DNA from: an uncultured delta proteobacterium
GTDB lineage: Bacteria > Desulfobacterota > BSN033 > UBA1163
Assembly: GCA_963827685.1 (NCBI GenBank)
Contig: CAWHBU010000002.1
Location: 640,001-704,000, forward strand
Direction: 5' to 3'
Length of the DNA: 64,000 nucleotides
Part shown: positions 57,666-64,000 of the stretch, piece after piece
Numbering within the stretch: position 1 is the first letter of the stretch
How the letters are laid out: the number at the start of each line of letters is the position of its first letter
The notes under the pieces: generated by a model
Databases searched by the model: none
What the model saw: the letters and a program-made list of their open reading frames with translations, nothing else
Told to the model about the DNA's origin: nothing
Made by a program: the position numbers and the translations under genes

Positions 57666-58598
57666 TTGAAAGAATTAAAGGCGATAAAAGAAGAATTATC
57701 GAATTTGAAGATGTTAGATAGCTTAAATATGAAACCCTTCCATTATAAAGTTCTTGTGGTGGATGATGAGGAACCAGTGAAGAGATTAATTGTGACTTTA
57801 TTATCTCAAAAGGGACATCAATGTATAGCCGCAGGTAGCGGTCTTGAGGCCCTGGAAAAAATTGAGAAAAACAAATTTGATGCTGTAGTCGCTGACATTG
57901 TCATGCCTGAAATGGACGGGCTTACCCTAACGAGAGAACTTTCAAAACATGATCAAAGCCCCCCTGTGATGATCATGACAGGGCATGCGGATGAATATTC
58001 AGCAGAAGATGCTATTGCTCTGGGGGCACGAGAATTTATTAACAAACCATTCTCGATTGCAGAATTTATTATCCGATTTTATAAAATGATGCATGACCAC
58101 AGAGGAGAGGAGGCGTTGCTGGCTCTATCCCTCACGGATGAACTTACAGGTTTGTATAATCGGCGAAGATTCTTTGTTTTGACAGACCAGTGTTTAAAGG
58201 TAGCCGTTCGGACAAAGAAAAGGCCGTTGCTCCTTTTCATCGATATGGATAACTTAAAATGGATTAACGACCACTACGGACATAATGAAGGAGACCAAGC
58301 ACTAATAGGCCTTGCCGATATCCTGAAACAGACCTTTCGTGAGTCTGATATTATTGCTCGGATTGGAGGAGATGAATTTGTAGTTCTATTGGAATCCACT
58401 GATGAGAACAGTGAGACAACGATAACTCGCTTGCATGAAAATGTGAGAGATTATAACGCCCAGAGGTCCAAATATACACTATCGATTAGCTTGGGAACTG
58501 CTCAATTTGATCCTGAATACCCTATTTCGATAGATGAACTCCTTTCTAAGGCGGACGCCTTGATGTATGCCCAGAAACGGAGAAGGTGGAGGGGTTAA
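57666..58598 (+). CDS. Response regulator diguanylate cyclase (REC-GGDEF)
   Basis: VLVVDD..DIVMPEMDG; RESD I-site; GGDEF. Confidence 0.93.
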   Translation: MKELKAIKEELSNLKMLDSLNMKPFHYKVLVVDDEEPVKRLIVTLLSQKGHQCIAAGSGLEALEKIEKNKFDAVVADIVMPEMDGLTLTRELSKHDQSPPVMIMTGHADEYSAEDAIALGAREFINKPFSIAEFIIRFYKMMHDHRGEEALLALSLTDELTGLYNRRRFFVLTDQCLKVAVRTKKRPLLLFIDMDNLKWINDHYGHNEGDQALIGLADILKQTFRESDIIARIGGDEFVVLLESTDENSETTITRLHENVRDYNAQRSKYTLSISLGTAQFDPEYPISIDELLSKADALMYAQKRRRWRG

Positions 58599-58800
58599 CA
58601 AATCGGAGAATTTATCGGAAACTCCAGGGGATCAGAGTAAAGGGATGGCCGATTTAATATTAAAATTAGCGAAGGGAATTCTTCAAAGAAACCATGGGAT
58701 GATGGTGGAAACCCACGGGAAAAGATCGGAGACTCTCATTGCTCTGAGATTCCCCATTGCGAGAAGAAAAGTAGGCTATTATGAACCGATTGCCCTATGA
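58567..58800 (+). pseudogene. Probable remnant of a histidine-kinase-like ATPase C-terminus
   Basis: DLILKLAKGILQRNHG...LRFP resembles the end of a HATPase domain; no N-terminal part. Confidence 0.35.
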
Positions 58801-58849
58801 AATAAGATGCAAATTTAGTAATAGAAAAACCTGAGGGCACAAGGAAACA

Positions 58850-59269
58850 TTGGAAGGATCATTTAACAAAAGAGAGAGAAGAAGCTATCCCAGGTTTATT
58901 GTTGATTTGCCTCTTGAATATCGGGATATGGATGGATCGTGTTTGCGTGGAGGGGTTCTTGTCAATGCAAGCGAGGGAGGCTTTCTTATCGAAGCAGTCA
59001 GAGACATCTCTGTTGGTACGGAATTAAATATTACTGTCCTGTTCCCAAAGGGGTTTGAATTGGCTAACTTCAAAGTGGTGGCGAAGATTGTGCGGAAGGA
59101 ACCTTATTGGAAAGAAGACTTGAAAGGAAACCAGTATTGGGAGGGATATCGGTATGGATTAGAATTGATCCAGATATTGGATGAGGATCGTTGGAAACTA
59201 AACCTCCTTCTTGGTGGCCGATTTGGATCTGAGGAGATTTCCCCCAGTCTACGCAGTCAGCATTATTAG
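58850..59269 (+). CDS. PilZ-domain protein
   Basis: ERRSYPRF, NASEGG; paralog of 7554-7952. Confidence 0.85.
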   Translation: MEGSFNKRERRSYPRFIVDLPLEYRDMDGSCLRGGVLVNASEGGFLIEAVRDISVGTELNITVLFPKGFELANFKVVAKIVRKEPYWKEDLKGNQYWEGYRYGLELIQILDEDRWKLNLLLGGRFGSEEISPSLRSQHY

Positions 59270-59283
59270 GAGTTTGGGTGCAG

Positions 59284-59427
59284 ATGGAAAAGGTTAAAGT
59301 TGTTGTGCAATTTAGCGATGGTAAGTTAATCAAGGGTTTTACTCAAGATTTTTTTCCGAATAAGGAACGTTTTCATCTTATTCCAGCTAATAACCCCCCT
59401 GGCGGGGCGAACAGGCAAGAAGGATAA
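59284..59427 (+). pseudogene. Truncated DUF6982-like gene (47 codons)
   Basis: MEKVKVVVQFSDGKLIKGFTQDFFPNKERFHL then breaks off; AGGAG RBS. Confidence 0.5.
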
Positions 59428-59637
59428 TCCAGACTCTTGATGGATGTTGTGGGGGAACAAAAAGCGTTGAGATCAAGAAGGCAATCCAGGAGTGGGGACA
59501 AAAGGTTGGAAAAATGTGAACCTCCGTGCTTTAGGAAAGGTATTCTTGATTCAATTTTTCTTCGCTGCTAAGTTCACCACATGCTCGCTTTCAATCGGAA
59601 ATCTTCACTTCTCAAAACAACTCTATCCACACTCTTT

Positions 59638-59726
59638 GTAGGTGAAGGTTTCAAATTCGGCTTGTGACCGGCGGGATTTGGAAAAAAGAGGACTTCTTCC
59701 TGTAATCTTGTTTTTCGATTTCTGCC
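59638..59726 (+). repeat. Repeat E copy 1 (starts GTAGGTG-N6-TCAA)
   Basis: Homologous to 63097-63186 (CTTGTGAC.GGCG.GA.TT.G..A.A...TTCTTCCTG). Confidence 0.75.
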
Positions 59727-60100
59727 CTTCTATGCAACATTACAAAGGGAAATCAGCAATATGAGGTAAATTATGGACGGAATTTTCCCCTTGATTTTCC
59801 ATGCACATGAGAGTATGTTGTATTTATAGTATTTCCCACCTGGCCCTAATTAACTTTACAACTTAACCTCTAACCTTCTTGGGTGCCGTATGAAGAGGAG
59901 ATTCCAGAAGGTGCCCCTATTTCGGTTCCAAAGGGATTCTTATGCCCCTTGGAGCCTTTTTAATTTTTAGATTCTTTTAATGTGTTAGGGGTCCTCCTAT
60001 TAACTCTACTCACAAATTGTGCCCTGACAATCGGGATTAAAAAAAAGGGAGGGGACTTCCGTTTTATCGGGGTTGATCGAATGAAAGGAGGTCGGTGCAA

Positions 60101-60808
60101 ATGAGGGAATTAAGCAAGTTGGACAGGACCTATAATTTCATCCTGAGACGTATGACGGAGACTGGCCAAGCGCCTTTTTATACGGAAATTGCCGCTGAGT
60201 TGAGGGTTTCCGTGGAAGAAGGTCGTAAAGCCCTCCATGATCTCTTTGGAGCGGGAATTCCTGGTTGGCTATTTCCGAATACAGACCTTATCGCTTCTTT
60301 TGCCCCCTTCAACAATCTTCCCAACCAGTACCGGATCACCGTCGAAGGGCAACAGAAGTGGTTTGGTCAGTGAGGGTTTGAGTCGCTGGCGGTCAGCTGG
60401 CTCTTCAAAAGAAAAACAGTGCGGATCGATGCTCCATGTCTTGATTGCGGATCACCCATCCGGGTGGAGATGAAAGATGGTATAATTAAAAATACTGAGC
60501 CCAAAGGGCTGATAGGATACACGTCTGTACCTTTTAAGGAATGGTTCAAAGACCTTCCTTATAGCTGAAGTACCATGAATCTCTTCCGGTCGGAAGAGCA
60601 CATTCGTAATTGGAGCGGTTTCAAATCGGGTACTGAAGAAGGGATCGTTGAATTGTCGGCCGTGGCTAAACTTTTTTCGATTGATGGTTTTAAGAGGCGT
60701 TTGGACCCGGATTATGTTTCCAATTATCAGAAGTATTTAAAGGAATTCATCTCTGCCCTTGGAGAGATGGGGAAAATCCGCCCATTCTGGTCACCGCCGG
60801 GTCCGTAA
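60101..60808 (+). CDS. MerB (organomercurial lyase)-like selenoprotein, 235 aa, two Sec
   Basis: In-frame TGA at 60371 (WFGQ-U-GFESL) and 60566 (PYS-U-STMNLFRSEEH); AAGGAGGT RBS; SECIS-like hairpins after both TGAs. Confidence 0.85.
60377..60409 (+). promoter_or_regulatory. SECIS-like hairpin 1
   Basis: GAG-TC-GCTG-[GCGGT]-CAGC-T-GG-CTC; GGTC begins 17 nt after the UGA. Confidence 0.65.
60575..60607 (+). promoter_or_regulatory. SECIS-like hairpin 2
   Basis: ATGAAT-CTCTTCC-[GGTC]-GGAAGAG-CAC-ATTCGT; GGTC begins 19 nt after the UGA. Confidence 0.75.
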
Positions 60809-60838
60809 CGGTGCGTGATTAGTTTTTACTTAATTACT

Positions 60839-60871
60839 GGCGGGGTCAGAAATGGCCCTGCCTCCCTTTTT
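60839..60871 (+). terminator. Intrinsic terminator after the merB-like gene
   Basis: GGCGGGGTCA-GAAA-TGGCCCTGCC then TCCCTTTTT. Confidence 0.6.
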
Positions 60872-61032
60872 GGCTTATGCTTGCTTTCTATTGGTAATCG
60901 TCAGCCTTGAAGATTATCTTGGACCGAAGAGTAGGTAGGTGCTATACGTAACAAAAAGGTGATTGAAAGTTAAGCTTATCAGGTTCATCATCTATCTGTA
61001 TTTCCTATTGATTCAAAGGAAAGGAGATAGAG

Positions 61033-62196
61033 ATGGACCAGAGGGCTATAGAATATTGCAGCGTCATTCCAACGAATGAATCCCTGACGGAATTTAGAAG
61101 TATTGATCGACGGGAGGGGATTCACCCATCCATTTTTTTATCCAAGGCCCATAGAAGAAAATCAGAGAGGCCGTGTTGTCCTGAGCTCGAGGCGAAGGCA
61201 AGAGCGTTTCAATGGGCACTGAATCGGGTTGCAGGCTGGGGCTTGCCGGGAAAAGAGCACGTTGAGGGCTATTTGCGGGACATGTGTAGGCGGGGTCTCA
61301 GGCCAAAAACGTACTTCAGTAACCTGACCGCAATCTATATTTTTCTCACTCTTATTAGAGGTTCCGGAAAGACCCGTTTGGAGGAGATCACCAAGGATGA
61401 TCTGGAGGTTTTTATTGAACATGAGCAGGATCGGGGGTTAATGATATCGACGGTGCGAACAAGGCTTCACTGTGTCAATGCTTTTTTAGGCTATCTGATT
61501 GAAGCAGGTGCGATTCGTAGTAATGTTCTGGCAAGAAGAATTCGTCTGAGGAAGCCCGAGACCTTACCGAGGGCCATAGATCCGGACGATGTGAAAGCAT
61601 TACTTTCTGTTATCAACAATCCCAGAGACCGGGCCATGGTGATGGTGCTTTTACGGACGGGGATGAGAATCGGTGAATTGCTGAGTACCAGGATGCAGGA
61701 TCTTCACCTCAAGGATCGAAGAGTGGATATCTACGAGGGGGAAAAGAACCGCATCGGAAGAGTGGTTTACCTCAGTGAAGATGCCATGCAGGCTTTGAAA
61801 GCCTGGATCAAGGTGAAGGATTCTCATAAAGTATATCTCTTTTATGCGACGGGCAAGAACGCCATGTCCTATACGACCGCACACCTCATGTTCAAAGGCT
61901 ACCTGACGAAAGCCGGTCTTGCCCATAAGGGGTATTGCCTCCATGCCCTACGACATACGTTTGCCAGTGAGCTTTTAAATGCCGGTATGCGCCTCGAATG
62001 CCTCCAACCGCTGATGGGGCATACCTCTGTGGATGTGACGCGGCGCTATGCGCGGCTCACGGATAAGACCAGAGAGCAAGAGTACTTCAGAGCCATGACG
62101 ATTATAGAAAGGGGGGAGCTGAATGGATCTTACCGACTCGATCATCAGGTACAGGCGTTTCTTGAAGAGAAGGAACGTCTCACCGAATACCGTTAA
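61033..62196 (+). CDS. Tyrosine recombinase A
   Basis: SAM-like N-terminal domain, RTGMRIGE, GEKN, HALRH, LMGH, RRY. Confidence 0.92.
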   Translation: MDQRAIEYCSVIPTNESLTEFRSIDRREGIHPSIFLSKAHRRKSERPCCPELEAKARAFQWALNRVAGWGLPGKEHVEGYLRDMCRRGLRPKTYFSNLTAIYIFLTLIRGSGKTRLEEITKDDLEVFIEHEQDRGLMISTVRTRLHCVNAFLGYLIEAGAIRSNVLARRIRLRKPETLPRAIDPDDVKALLSVINNPRDRAMVMVLLRTGMRIGELLSTRMQDLHLKDRRVDIYEGEKNRIGRVVYLSEDAMQALKAWIKVKDSHKVYLFYATGKNAMSYTTAHLMFKGYLTKAGLAHKGYCLHALRHTFASELLNAGMRLECLQPLMGHTSVDVTRRYARLTDKTREQEYFRAMTIIERGELNGSYRLDHQVQAFLEEKERLTEYR

Positions 62197-63016
62197 GCAC
62201 TATTTAAACAGTCTGAAGCACTTTGTTCTCTGGCTGGATGAGCCGATCGAAAAGGTCACCTACAGAAAGGTTGACGAGTATATGGATGACCTGCTTGGAA
62301 AACGGCTAAAACCTAAGACCGTCAACTGTTATCTCAACAGCATCTGTCAGTTTTACCACTACCTCTGCGAAGAAGAGGGACTCCGGATCGTCAACCCTGT
62401 GAAGAAGCCAAATATCATGAAGCTTCCCAGAGGGCTTCCCAAACATCTGAGAGACGAGCACATAGAGATCCTCTTCAAGCATCTGAAAGGGCGAAGGGAT
62501 CAGGCCATCTTCACGCTCATGCTCCGATGCGGATTACGGGTAGAAGAAGTGGCTCACCTTTCCCTCAGCAATATTGATCTGAAACGCAGAATGCTGCTCA
62601 TCCAGGATGGCAAGGGTGCGAAGGATCGGATTGTCTATCTCAGCAACGATGCCCTTCATGCTCTCCTGGAATATCTAAGGGTGCGACCCGCAAATAAAGT
62701 AAGAAAGGTTTTTCTTGTAGAGAAAGGGCCTCTCAGCGGGCAACCTTTATCCATTCGCGGCATCCAGAAACGGATGGAATATTATGCCCGCAAAACAAAC
62801 TTGAGAATCTCCTGCCACCATCTTCGCCATACGATGGCAACGCAGATGTTGAATGCGGATGCGGACCTCTCTACCATCCAGGATCTTTTGGGGCATAACT
62901 CTATCAGGACGACCCAACGCTACTGCCGGGTATCAAACCTCAAAGTACAGAGAGATTACTACAAAGCCATGGAGGTGATCATGCAACGAACGGCTGGCAA
63001 CCCAAATAATCCTTGA
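62123..63016 (+). CDS. Tyrosine recombinase B (XerD-like)
   Basis: SPNTVKHY, RCGLRVEE, GKGAKDR, HHLRH, LLGH, QRY; overlaps recombinase A by 74 nt. Confidence 0.92.
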   Translation: MDLTDSIIRYRRFLKRRNVSPNTVKHYLNSLKHFVLWLDEPIEKVTYRKVDEYMDDLLGKRLKPKTVNCYLNSICQFYHYLCEEEGLRIVNPVKKPNIMKLPRGLPKHLRDEHIEILFKHLKGRRDQAIFTLMLRCGLRVEEVAHLSLSNIDLKRRMLLIQDGKGAKDRIVYLSNDALHALLEYLRVRPANKVRKVFLVEKGPLSGQPLSIRGIQKRMEYYARKTNLRISCHHLRHTMATQMLNADADLSTIQDLLGHNSIRTTQRYCRVSNLKVQRDYYKAMEVIMQRTAGNPNNP

Positions 63017-63096
63017 CATGAGAAAGAAATTATGAAAACTTAAACACTACGCAACATCATAATATCAATAGTAAATACGGATTATGTTACGTATAG

Positions 63097-63186
63097 GTAG
63101 GTGAAAGTTTCAAGCTGGACTTGTGACTGGCGAGACTTAGGAAGAATGTGGATTTCTTCCTGAAAGAGTGATTTTCAAATCTCGCC
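63097..63186 (+). repeat. Repeat E copy 2
   Basis: Homologous to 59638-59726. Confidence 0.75.
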
Positions 63187-63269
63187 ACAAAATAGAATCT
63201 TTCAAGCAGTAATCGATACGAATGGAACATAATGGAGGTATGTGGTGTTTCTCATCCTCATAAATTGAT

Positions 63270-63875
63270 CTACTTTCTTATCAGCAGCCATAATCCCCCT
63301 TCAGAGACGATTTCCACTTTTCCCTTCACATTGCTCATCGAGATACCTTGCCATAACTGATCTTCATTTACTTCGATCTTACCGATCTTGAGGTTAAGAT
63401 CCCGTGATCTCTTTCCGATTTTCTTAATCACAGTCTCAGGGGTGAACTTCCCGAACCCTCCACCAATAAACGCCATTCCATTCTTCCTCAGAATCCCAAA
63501 GATCGCTGAAAAGTTGACCTCAAACAAAGAAGGAAAGAAAAAGGCTCCTCGAAAGATGGCCAGATCAATTCTATTTTCGTCTACCCCGCTCAAGGAAGGA
63601 TCTGATTCAATGACCTCGATTTTGTCCTCAGCTTTCTGTTTCCTTGCTTCTTCACGGAAAAAATCGCCCATTCCTGGCGGAAAGGTTGCGATCAAAAAAG
63701 AGCGGCCTATCCCTTGTCTTAGCAAGGCAAAGATTGAACCACAAAAGGGACCTATTTCCAGAATATTTCCGTCTTGACGACCGTAGAGCTCATGGATGTG
63801 TCGTGCTAAATATGGATAAACCGGATCCCAGAGGCGATCAATCTCTTTAATAAGATCTAAATTTACAGATGTCAT
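63270..63875 (-). CDS. Class I SAM-methyltransferase-like protein (degenerate motif I)
   Basis: ILEIGPFCG, IDLAIFRGAFFF, ILRKNG.AFIGGGFG. Confidence 0.65.
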   Translation of the reverse strand: MTSVNLDLIKEIDRLWDPVYPYLARHIHELYGRQDGNILEIGPFCGSIFALLRQGIGRSFLIATFPPGMGDFFREEARKQKAEDKIEVIESDPSLSGVDENRIDLAIFRGAFFFPSLFEVNFSAIFGILRKNGMAFIGGGFGKFTPETVIKKIGKRSRDLNLKIGKIEVNEDQLWQGISMSNVKGKVEIVSEGGLWLLIRK

Positions 63876-64000
63876 AAGATACCCCTTTTAGGTCCCCTAG
63901 TCACATCCTTTCTCTGTTTTGCTCTTAAAAACTTTCTTCGTTGTATTATAGAGAAGGCTCGGTGATCAGCCGAAGTACAGCCTGTTCTAATCGCTCCTGG

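Follow-up and report, generated by a model that had tools for sequence, protein, structure and literature searches.

Few transposable elements that rely on tyrosine recombinases alone are known to us (Tn554, SEs, GInts, and RITs), they are poorly understood, and to our knowledge none is as small or as cleanly bounded as the one described here. This element, which consists of two recombinase genes, A and B, lies at 60935-63103 of the window, that is, the whole stretch of 64,000 nucleotides (nt) from an uncultured delta proteobacterium that was analyzed. Tn554 has no terminal inverted repeats and carries junction bases along. The insertion sequences (ISs) that target REP or BIME repeats insert into intergenic repeats and use DDE or DEDD transposases. 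The comparisons presented below indicate, with a probability of about 0.8, that the locus is an autonomous, IS-sized, site-specific transposable element with two Xer-like recombinases, a 12-7-12 site, and a 7-mer that it carries along.

Among the described systems, SEs are built on a core of four genes (intA, tfp, intB, and srap), carry cargo, measure 15.7 kb in the median, and are confined to Gammaproteobacteria in the accessible part of their description (PMC10214605). According to the same part of that source, the spacer of the SE circle comes to lie beside the intA-distal end upon insertion, and the 6 bp of the target are kept at the intA-proximal end. For a Tn554-type transposon, the available portion of a 2025 report describes a circular intermediate and, at the two ends, a 7-bp att (left) and a "brought-in" att (right) (PMC12486829). 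RIT elements appear in the accessible sections of two sources (PMC3414803; PMC8138268) as units of ~3.5 kb with three recombinases (ritA, ritB, and ritC) and poorly defined ends. In the portion of Van Houdt et al. 2012 that was available (PMC3414803), actinobacterial Tn554-like tnpAB pairs without TnpC are listed, with products of 611-828 amino acids (aa) and ~350 aa. An earlier note on this DNA had singled out the element for having two recombinases and no cargo. Its content is as claimed, since A and B alone lie inside; its novelty is reduced by the tnpAB pairs and by the parallel between its 7-mer and the SE spacer, as far as the accessible text of those two sources goes. A literature search returned no description of an IS-sized two-recombinase family, and the supplementary tables of PMC3414803 and PMC10214605 might list related pairs. 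The exact arm 12-mers were found in the literature only in mouse-genetics papers, which are unrelated.

By inspection of the window sequence, the element comprises 60942-63096 plus one 7-mer. The inverted arms bracketed by GTAGGTG, as described in the earlier note, are present exactly, at 60935-60953 and 63085-63103: CTATACGTAACA and TGTTACGTATAG are exact reverse complements of 12 bp each, with 2131 bp between them. The interior of 2155 bp and one 7-mer give the 2162 bp that had been calculated for an excised circle. The host assembly (G000; 5.23 Mb, 14 contigs) contains three copies, namely the window copy (on contig C2), a copy at C4:734775-736943 that is 100% identical to it, and a copy at C1:55738-57902, on the opposite strand to the window copy, which has 3 internal differences and AGTAGTG in place of GTAGGTG on the A side. 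The similarity of the three copies ends directly outside the 7-mers, the flanks at the three different sites are unrelated, and the contigs (0.43-1.28 Mb) hold each copy within unique flanks. Because the three genomic copies share exact bounds and diverge right outside the 7-mers, the ends are far beyond chance. As proposed in the earlier note, the locus is a discrete element that contains no genes besides the two recombinases. Across the 5.23-Mb host genome, the exact arm 12-mer is found at seven places: six are the ends of the three copies, and the seventh is a solo occurrence at C3:65282. The presence of three near-identical copies in one genome would suggest copy gain.

Part of the stretch is present in 20 of 24 sequencing runs, and four of them (X1, X2, X3, and X6) were compared, all as Logan assembled contigs. 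The run contigs stop at the element ends; record 10 of X2, 2168 nt long, corresponds to 60936-63103 and has a depth of 62.7, versus about 7-10 in the flanks. In runs of other studies, the same element is joined to other flanks, including those of the C1 copy and at least 3 further right flanks (loose contig ends), and its mobility is therefore supported. The lone joint that spans the element (60863 to 63156, side 21) consists of one contig with a depth of 4 and is too weak to use. These results indicate, at the level of sequence comparison, that the element is intact and recently active or mobile. As a separate observation, another repeat of at least 1.16 kb lies ~34 nt past the A-side end of the C1 copy (L136, 3400-4565); it has at least 14 copies at 99-100% identity and is probably a DDE insertion sequence.

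A and B are the only open reading frames (ORFs) of at least 50 aa on the sense strand inside the element, and B overlaps A by 74 nt, both on the + strand. Both proteins match PF00589 (E ~6e-36 each); B has an additional SAM-like N-terminal domain, and A has an N-terminal extension of ~75 aa. As the earlier note had stated, both enzymes retain the full R-K-HxxR-H-Y set by alignment: R212/K238/H304/R307/H330/Y339 in A, invariant in all nine aligned homologues, and R139/K167/H232/R235/H258/Y267 in B, taken from the alignment to 4a8e. The element encodes tyrosine recombinases only, with none of the DDE, DEDD, HUH, or serine transposases of a classical IS. The best NCBIfam matches of both proteins are the XerA, XerC, and XerD models, with all scores well under the curated cut-offs (A, 149 bits versus 220 for XerA and 136 versus 335 for XerC; B, 201 versus 335 for XerC and 192 versus 220 for XerA). 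With the integron-integrase model TIGR02249, A and B score 72 and 104 bits, respectively, against a cut-off of 265, so that neither is of the IntI type. The nearest solved structures are archaeal XerA/XerC-like (4a8e and 5hxy) and XerD (1a0p). Other Xer-like genes lie at C5:208287 and C2:664638 of the host genome, which contains no second twin recombinase module besides the three copies, and a plasmid search with the element proteins gave a best match of 29% identity. Elsewhere in the host genome, at C3:782919-783275 (-), a 141-aa frame (L150) matches only the C-terminal 119 positions of TIGR02249 (191 bits versus the cut-off of 265) and may be a truncated IntI-like gene.

A search of 40 related genomes, 14 of them congeneric, gave homologues of A with 49-56% identity in 8, of which 6 belong to the same genus; a B homologue usually comes next. 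In one of these genomes, G010, all four copies share the arms of the window copy and are flanked on either side by CACCTAC, which is GTAGGTG read on the other strand; CTTGCCA, CAGGAAG, and other 7-mers occur in further related genomes. In a collection of 5.8 billion proteins, the best 120 relatives of A share 70-94% identity, are 373-388 aa long, and are labeled, where named by their source, as XerD or "tyrosine-type recombinase"; they lie mostly on contigs of 1.2-5 kb, as is typical of a repeat that breaks assemblies. A scan of species-representative genomes yielded 261 stretches encoding relatives, and 80 of these loci were retained for analysis. They belong mostly to Smithella, Syntrophales, and "delta proteobacterium" metagenome-assembled genomes (MAGs); some are from Thermodesulfovibrionales/Nitrospirota, and the labels Dehalococcoidales and Gammaproteobacteria appear once each. 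Of the 74 loci in which a neighboring B could fit, 70 have it on the same strand as A, at most 200 nt downstream. Overall, the relatives show 50-94% protein identity and occur in Syntrophales, Smithella, Desulfobacterota, and Nitrospirota MAGs, and the family is widespread and apparently undescribed.

Both arms were found in 57 of the 80 loci under loose criteria. Under strict criteria, which called for arms 1950-2600 bp apart and readable 7-mers, there were 48 complete elements. The flanking 7-mers are identical in 38 of these 48 and fall into 11 types (CTTCCTG 14, GTAGGTG 9, CAAATAC 3, CACCTAC 3, plus others), which are constant within a subfamily and differ among subfamilies. The 12-bp arms are nearly invariant across the family, and where one arm changes, the other mirrors the change (CTGTACGTAACA with TGTTACGTACAG, and GTATACGTAACA with TGTTACGTATAC). 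Relative to the genes, the 7-mer is found in either orientation (GTAGGTG/CACCTAC, GTAGATG/CATCTAC, and CTTCCTG/CAGGAAG), which is what symmetric arms around a 7-mer as the sole directional part would predict. Thus, the 12-7-12 site and the ends, for which the earlier note had predicted counterparts in homologous pairs, recur in the same layout across a large family with subfamily-specific 7-mers. Longer relatives (2.3-3.0 kb) contain extra small ORFs, and none of the six tested for cargo gave a Pfam match.

Sites without the element were found in related species. In a congeneric species (G006), the left flank of the window copy, from the MerB-like gene onward, is orthologous (82% over ~850 nt), ends in a single GTAGGTG, and is followed by different DNA, with the element absent. 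In G010 and G004, the orthologous right flank of the C1 copy (81% over 600 nt) is preceded by a copy of the target repeat and one GTAGGTG, again with the element absent. Since all three sites have one GTAGGTG, the 7-mer was present once before the insertion and twice after it. The likeness of the right flank to an unoccupied repeat at 59638 of the window, which had been noted earlier, holds at 78% over 50 nt (63097 onward versus 59638-59687) and at 77.5% over 80 nt. A 7-mer that is constant within a subfamily and single in empty sites is the signature of the overlap region of tyrosine recombination, rather than of a staggered-cut duplication.

The flanking 7-mers differ between the two sides in 10 of the 48 complete elements. 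In the host genome, the B side is GTAGGTG in all three copies, whereas the A side is GTAGGTG, GTAGGTG, and AGTAGTG. The right 7-mer is GTAGGTG in both L065 and L068, with GAGGATG and GAAGGTG, respectively, on the left; it is CTTCCTG in L072, L074, L075, and L108, with TTTCCTG on the left of L075, and CTGCTCT in L115 and L118, with CTACTCT on the left of L115. Within each of the four informative multi-copy genomes, the copies agree in their B-side 7-mer and differ in their A-side one, with no genome showing the opposite; the variant left 7-mers always retain the last two or three bases. The element therefore carries a 7-mer along. The pattern points to a brought 7-mer on the B side and the target's own on the A side, and would imply productive exchange at one edge of the overlap. 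It corresponds to the published placement of the SE spacer and is similar to the "brought-in" att of the Tn554-type transposon. L126 and L127 each combine a left CTTCCTG with a right GTGGCTG.

In the mechanism we propose, A and B together would recombine attL with attR, giving the 2162-bp circle with an arm-7-arm junction, and this junction would recombine with a chromosomal site that has a matching 7-bp overlap and the flanks ..TT / AAT... Given palindromic arms, the orientation would be set by the asymmetric 7-mer, whose sequence would also largely determine the address. After the insertion, the A-proximal 7-mer would be that of the target and the B-proximal 7-mer that brought by the element. 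Strand exchange at one overlap edge only would amount to strand-biased, SE/Tn554-like behavior, possibly with copy-out. The preferred target in the genus would be the GTAGGTG core of a dispersed intergenic repeat, and insertions would avoid genes because this repeat lies between a terminator hairpin and a promoter. The circle, a joint requirement for A and B, and the strand bias are inferences.

Joined sites were searched for with the pattern 12-N7-12, which gave 3 stretches in metagenome contigs. In one metagenome contig with a related element (L133, 2246 nt), a flank is followed by ACAGGAA, the element, TGTTACGTATAG, ACAGGAA, CTATACGTAACA, and the first 26 nt of the element. Solo arm-7-arm sites were also observed, at 1090-1120 of L131 and 1911-1941 of L132 (metagenome contigs) and at 1501-1531 of L149 (G356:C238). 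Their spacers are CACCTGC and GTAAATA, sequence resembling element ends lies on both sides, and there are no recombinase genes within ~1.5 kb; the site in L131 lies between the genes for a GGDEF-EAL protein and a beta-propeller protein. These solo sites could be relics, miniature derivatives, or decoy sites.

The host genome has 280 GTAGGTG sites, and TTTCnAnnnGnAATC lies 25-70 nt upstream of 30 of them; the spacing from the motif to the 7-mer is exactly 49 nt in 33 of 59 relaxed hits. At its start, the target repeat often has a terminator-like hairpin, GGCAGGGTCA..CCTGCC with a T run behind it, and after the 7-mer it runs into one of several right modules, one of which holds a TTGACC-17-TATATT promoter. 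The window and C4 copies lie inside such repeats, the site of the C1 copy is such a repeat in G010 and G004, and 3 of the 4 copies in G010 lie, by eye, in the target repeat, inverted as CACCTAC predicts. A scan of 58500-64000 gave nothing near any Rfam gathering score and no tRNA gene, and the target is therefore not a known RNA gene. RNAalifold gave no consensus structure for the target repeats, leaving a stem seen by eye unsupported. Across 49 elements of all 7-mer types, the flank consensus is ..TT(w) - 7-mer - (w)AAT.., 36 of them carrying T at -2, 40 carrying A at +2, and 33 carrying T at +4; the target flank is a short palindromic frame unlike the element arms. In two places without an element, at C3:1194432 (-) of the host genome and at 3251-3281 of L057 (CTATACGTAACC, CTATAAGTAACA), the 12 nt after the 7-mer are identical to the arm at 11 of 12 positions; these may be scars or natural half-sites.

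The repeats also form co-oriented arrays between unrelated single genes, at C8:39500-59400 (L134) and C2:13-40 kb of the host genome and at G002:C17:265-306 kb, the last with at least 18 copies of the right module, which is found in long co-oriented arrays. The array unit of ~300 nt consists of a terminator hairpin, a TTTC motif, a GTAGGTG or GTAGATG core, and the TTGACC-17-TATATT promoter. The genes of the C8 array encode a PagL-like protein, two dienelactone hydrolases, an FMN reductase, and an MjaI-type restriction-modification pair, and are interspersed with DDE insertion sequences; these genes are conserved singly, at 89-93%, in other neighborhoods of related species, and the PagL match ends at the 7-mer. 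Synteny among G000, G010, G004, and G006 likewise breaks at the repeat or the 7-mer. The arrays thus look like a cassette organization in sequence, which may have arisen by the twin recombinases, by homologous recombination between repeats, or by another recombinase. A second dispersed repeat of ~110-155 nt with GC hairpins (CCCGCC..GGCGGG), which has many copies genome-wide and is unrelated to the GTAGGTG repeat, was observed at ~9860-10020 of L134 (minus strand), directly 3' of the FMN-reductase gene.

These arrays bear on the question of whether the recombinase pair is mainly exploited by the host, or acts in trans, with the GTAGGTG repeats serving as cassette junctions for integron-like shuffling and its own transposition being secondary. 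The co-oriented arrays, the conservation of their genes in other contexts, the end of the PagL match at the 7-mer, and the interspecies synteny breaks would all fit such a module. However, the repeats far outnumber the elements, and 32 of the 40 related genomes have no A homologue. Break points at repeats can also be yielded by homologous recombination, the terminator and strong promoter in the repeat could explain its conservation through shared regulation, and no cassette circle was seen. We consider this explanation improbable. Hardly less speculative, and doubtful in our view, is a version in which the 7-mer is a portable address that alone chooses the landing site, the arms bind the recombinases, and the GTAGGTG repeats are junctions of a non-IntI cassette shuffling driven in trans; if this were true, the family would be natural integrases that are retargetable by changing seven bases.

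Several results weigh against the reading of the locus as a strand-biased transposable element. The four runs (assembled contigs only) yielded neither a circle junction nor a precisely excised allele of this element, no arm-7-arm junction with either of two arm variants was found in viral contigs, and the 12-7-12 site was found in 1 of 401 genomes of the phylum, as a solo site without recombinase genes. The junction in L133 could be that of a circle or of a head-to-tail tandem. The unoccupied sites are alleles of other species, neither from the same strain nor excision products, and L126 and L127 are compatible with a brought right 7-mer without giving it independent support. The target flanks match the arms at 3.8 of 12 positions, versus 3.3 of 12 in the control, and thus show no general arm mimicry. 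In addition, tfp and srap, which are essential in SEs, have no counterpart here; with only two sense ORFs of at least 50 aa inside the element, there is no room for them. A rival reading is a classical cut-and-paste integrase chemistry of the lambda or ICE (integrative and conjugative element) type, in which the same element would exchange both strand pairs and restore the empty site, with neither strand bias nor copy-out. Both strand pairs are normally exchanged by tyrosine recombinases, unoccupied sites with one 7-mer exist, and the identical 7-mers in 38 of the 48 elements are predicted by either model. Full exchange with mismatched overlaps, followed by replication, would, however, be expected to leave the variant 7-mer on either side equally, whereas it lies on the A side in all five variant copies, and the three near-identical copies in one genome suggest copy gain; we regard this chemistry as possible, albeit rather unlikely. 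An invertible DNA switch, in which the recombinases would flip the segment between the inverted arms, could draw on the perfect inverted arms and on the occurrence of both 7-mer orientations relative to the genes in the family. Nevertheless, the segment contains recombinase genes only, the 7-mers are in direct orientation, which favors excision, the copies lie in different flanks, and no inverted allele was seen in the run contigs, making a switch very improbable. That A and B are the housekeeping XerC/XerD pair at dif, or that the copies are an assembly duplication, has next to nothing in its favor: the best family matches are Xer models and the closest structures are XerA and XerD, but the scores lie under all Xer cut-offs, other Xer-like genes are present elsewhere in the genome, the three copies have unique flanks on their large contigs, and the homologues are multi-copy in many genomes.

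The positions of the features assigned to the element and its target are given in the table below. The two subterminal boxes form a 19-nt inverted repeat with 89% complementarity. Among 21 aligned family members, the left box is strongly conserved as CATCTATCTGT.TTTC.TATTGAT, and its inverted partner, which adjoins the right arm, as ATATCAATAG..AAA. The left ends of most of these members also keep TTGAC..(17)..CAT(C/T)AT upstream of A. A promoter scan of the region gave 3 sites versus 4.0 expected, i.e., not above chance, and is therefore no evidence by itself. The further arm-like copy that had been reported at ~63048 is present in the window as CTACGCAACA; across the 21 members, only its TAAC core is kept. 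We regard the conserved subterminal features as candidate accessory binding sites.

Table. Positions of the two-recombinase element, its ends, and its target repeat in the window
Feature	Position	Strand	Basis or remark
Paralogous target repeat without an element (left and right modules, with GTAGGTG at 59638-59644 between them)	59588-59716	+	Repeat comparison
Terminator-like hairpin of the upstream MerB-like gene	60839-60862	+	Stem of 10 pairs with a T run after it; hairpins of this type belong to the dispersed target repeat
Left module of the target, TTTCTATTGGTAATC..., with the 7-mer 51 nt after the motif start	60884-60934	+	Member of the dispersed family
Left 7-mer GTAGGTG	60935-60941	+	Overlap region of attL; probably derived from the target, as the A-side 7-mer differs among copies in multi-copy genomes
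Left terminal arm CTATACGTAACA	60942-60953	+	Conserved in the family, with matching changes in the right arm
Promoter-like TTGAAA-17-CATCAT, 5' of gene A	60963-60991	+	Consensus scan
Left subterminal box ATCTGTATTTCCTATTGAT	60994-61012	+	Inverted repeat of the right box; kept in the family alignment
Gene A, Xer-like tyrosine recombinase, 387 aa	61033-62196	+	Profile and structure comparison
Gene B, Xer-like tyrosine recombinase, 297 aa	62123-63016	+	Profile and structure comparison
Internal arm-like CTACGCAACA	63047-63056	+	Sequence; TAAC core alone kept in the family alignment
Right subterminal box ATCAATAGTAAATACGGAT	63064-63082	+	Inverted repeat and family alignment
Right terminal arm TGTTACGTATAG	63085-63096	+	Exact 12-mer occurrences
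Right 7-mer GTAGGTG	63097-63103	+	Overlap region of attR; probably the copy brought by the element
Right module of the target, downstream of the insertion	63104-63176	+	Repeat comparison

Hairpins like that at 60839-60862 precede many copies of the target repeat. The MerB-like (alkylmercury lyase) gene upstream of it, at 60095-60808 (+), has in-frame TGA codons at 60371-60373 and 60566-60568. Read with TGA as U, it encodes 237 aa with a PF03243 match across both positions (E 8e-17), and paralogues and orthologues occur at G000:C3:1235453, in G006, and in others. The two TGA codons presumably coincide with the catalytic cysteines of MerB, and the product may be a protein with two selenocysteines.

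With its two enzymes, its two arms of 12 bp, and its single 7-bp overlap, the element is a minimal system that raises the questions of why there are two recombinases, how a strand-biased or copy-out reaction runs, and whether the overlap rewrites the target choice. The family is common in Syntrophales, Smithella, and other anaerobe MAGs, in which its copies lie on contigs of 2-3 kb, and matters for assembly as well as for annotation, in which its genes are now labeled XerC or XerD.

Compared with known systems, the element resembles SEs, as the accessible part of their description presents them, in its pair of catalytic tyrosine recombinases, in a spacer (6 bp in SEs and 7 bp here) enclosed by short terminal inverted repeats, and in its insertion into few selected targets. 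The recombinase-proximal spacer is that of the target and the distal one is carried in, which for the element follows from comparison only. Unlike the SEs of that account, it is 2.16 kb long, with two genes, no cargo, and perfect 12-bp arms, and is hosted by Desulfobacterota/Nitrospirota. Like Tn554, it has two tyrosine recombinase genes side by side in the same orientation, inserts at specific sites, and is present as identical copies within a genome, whereas it differs in the absence of TnpC, in its smaller proteins (387 and 297 aa), in its perfect inverted arms, and in the lack of resistance cargo. The actinobacterial Tn554-like pair of pREL1, which was compared in place of Tn554 itself, shows generic identities of 29% (A) and 32% (B) to its short protein and 24% (B) to its long protein; both A and B resemble the short protein best. 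RIT elements are similarly compact and cargo-poor, with overlapping tyrosine recombinase genes, inverted-repeat flanks, and multiple copies in some genomes, but the element has two recombinases, a pairing that recurs at 70 of 74 loci of the family, and its ends and core are exactly defined. The putative joined site resembles those of Cre/loxP and Xer/dif in having inverted arms around an asymmetric 6-8-bp overlap that sets the direction, and the proteins are Xer-like. Those systems act in dimer resolution at one fixed locus and do not transpose, whereas the site of the element is split between its two ends, and its overlap varies by subfamily. A dispersed intergenic repeat is the target also of the REP/BIME-targeting ISs, from which the element differs by its two tyrosine recombinases and its overlap homology, and it differs from classical ISs in that the 7-mer is constant within a subfamily and is not a variable target duplication. 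BIM elements were dropped from the comparison, as they consist of one recombinase and an unrelated protein. Overall, the element would behave like SEs and Tn554-type transposons and, by its gene content, belongs to neither.

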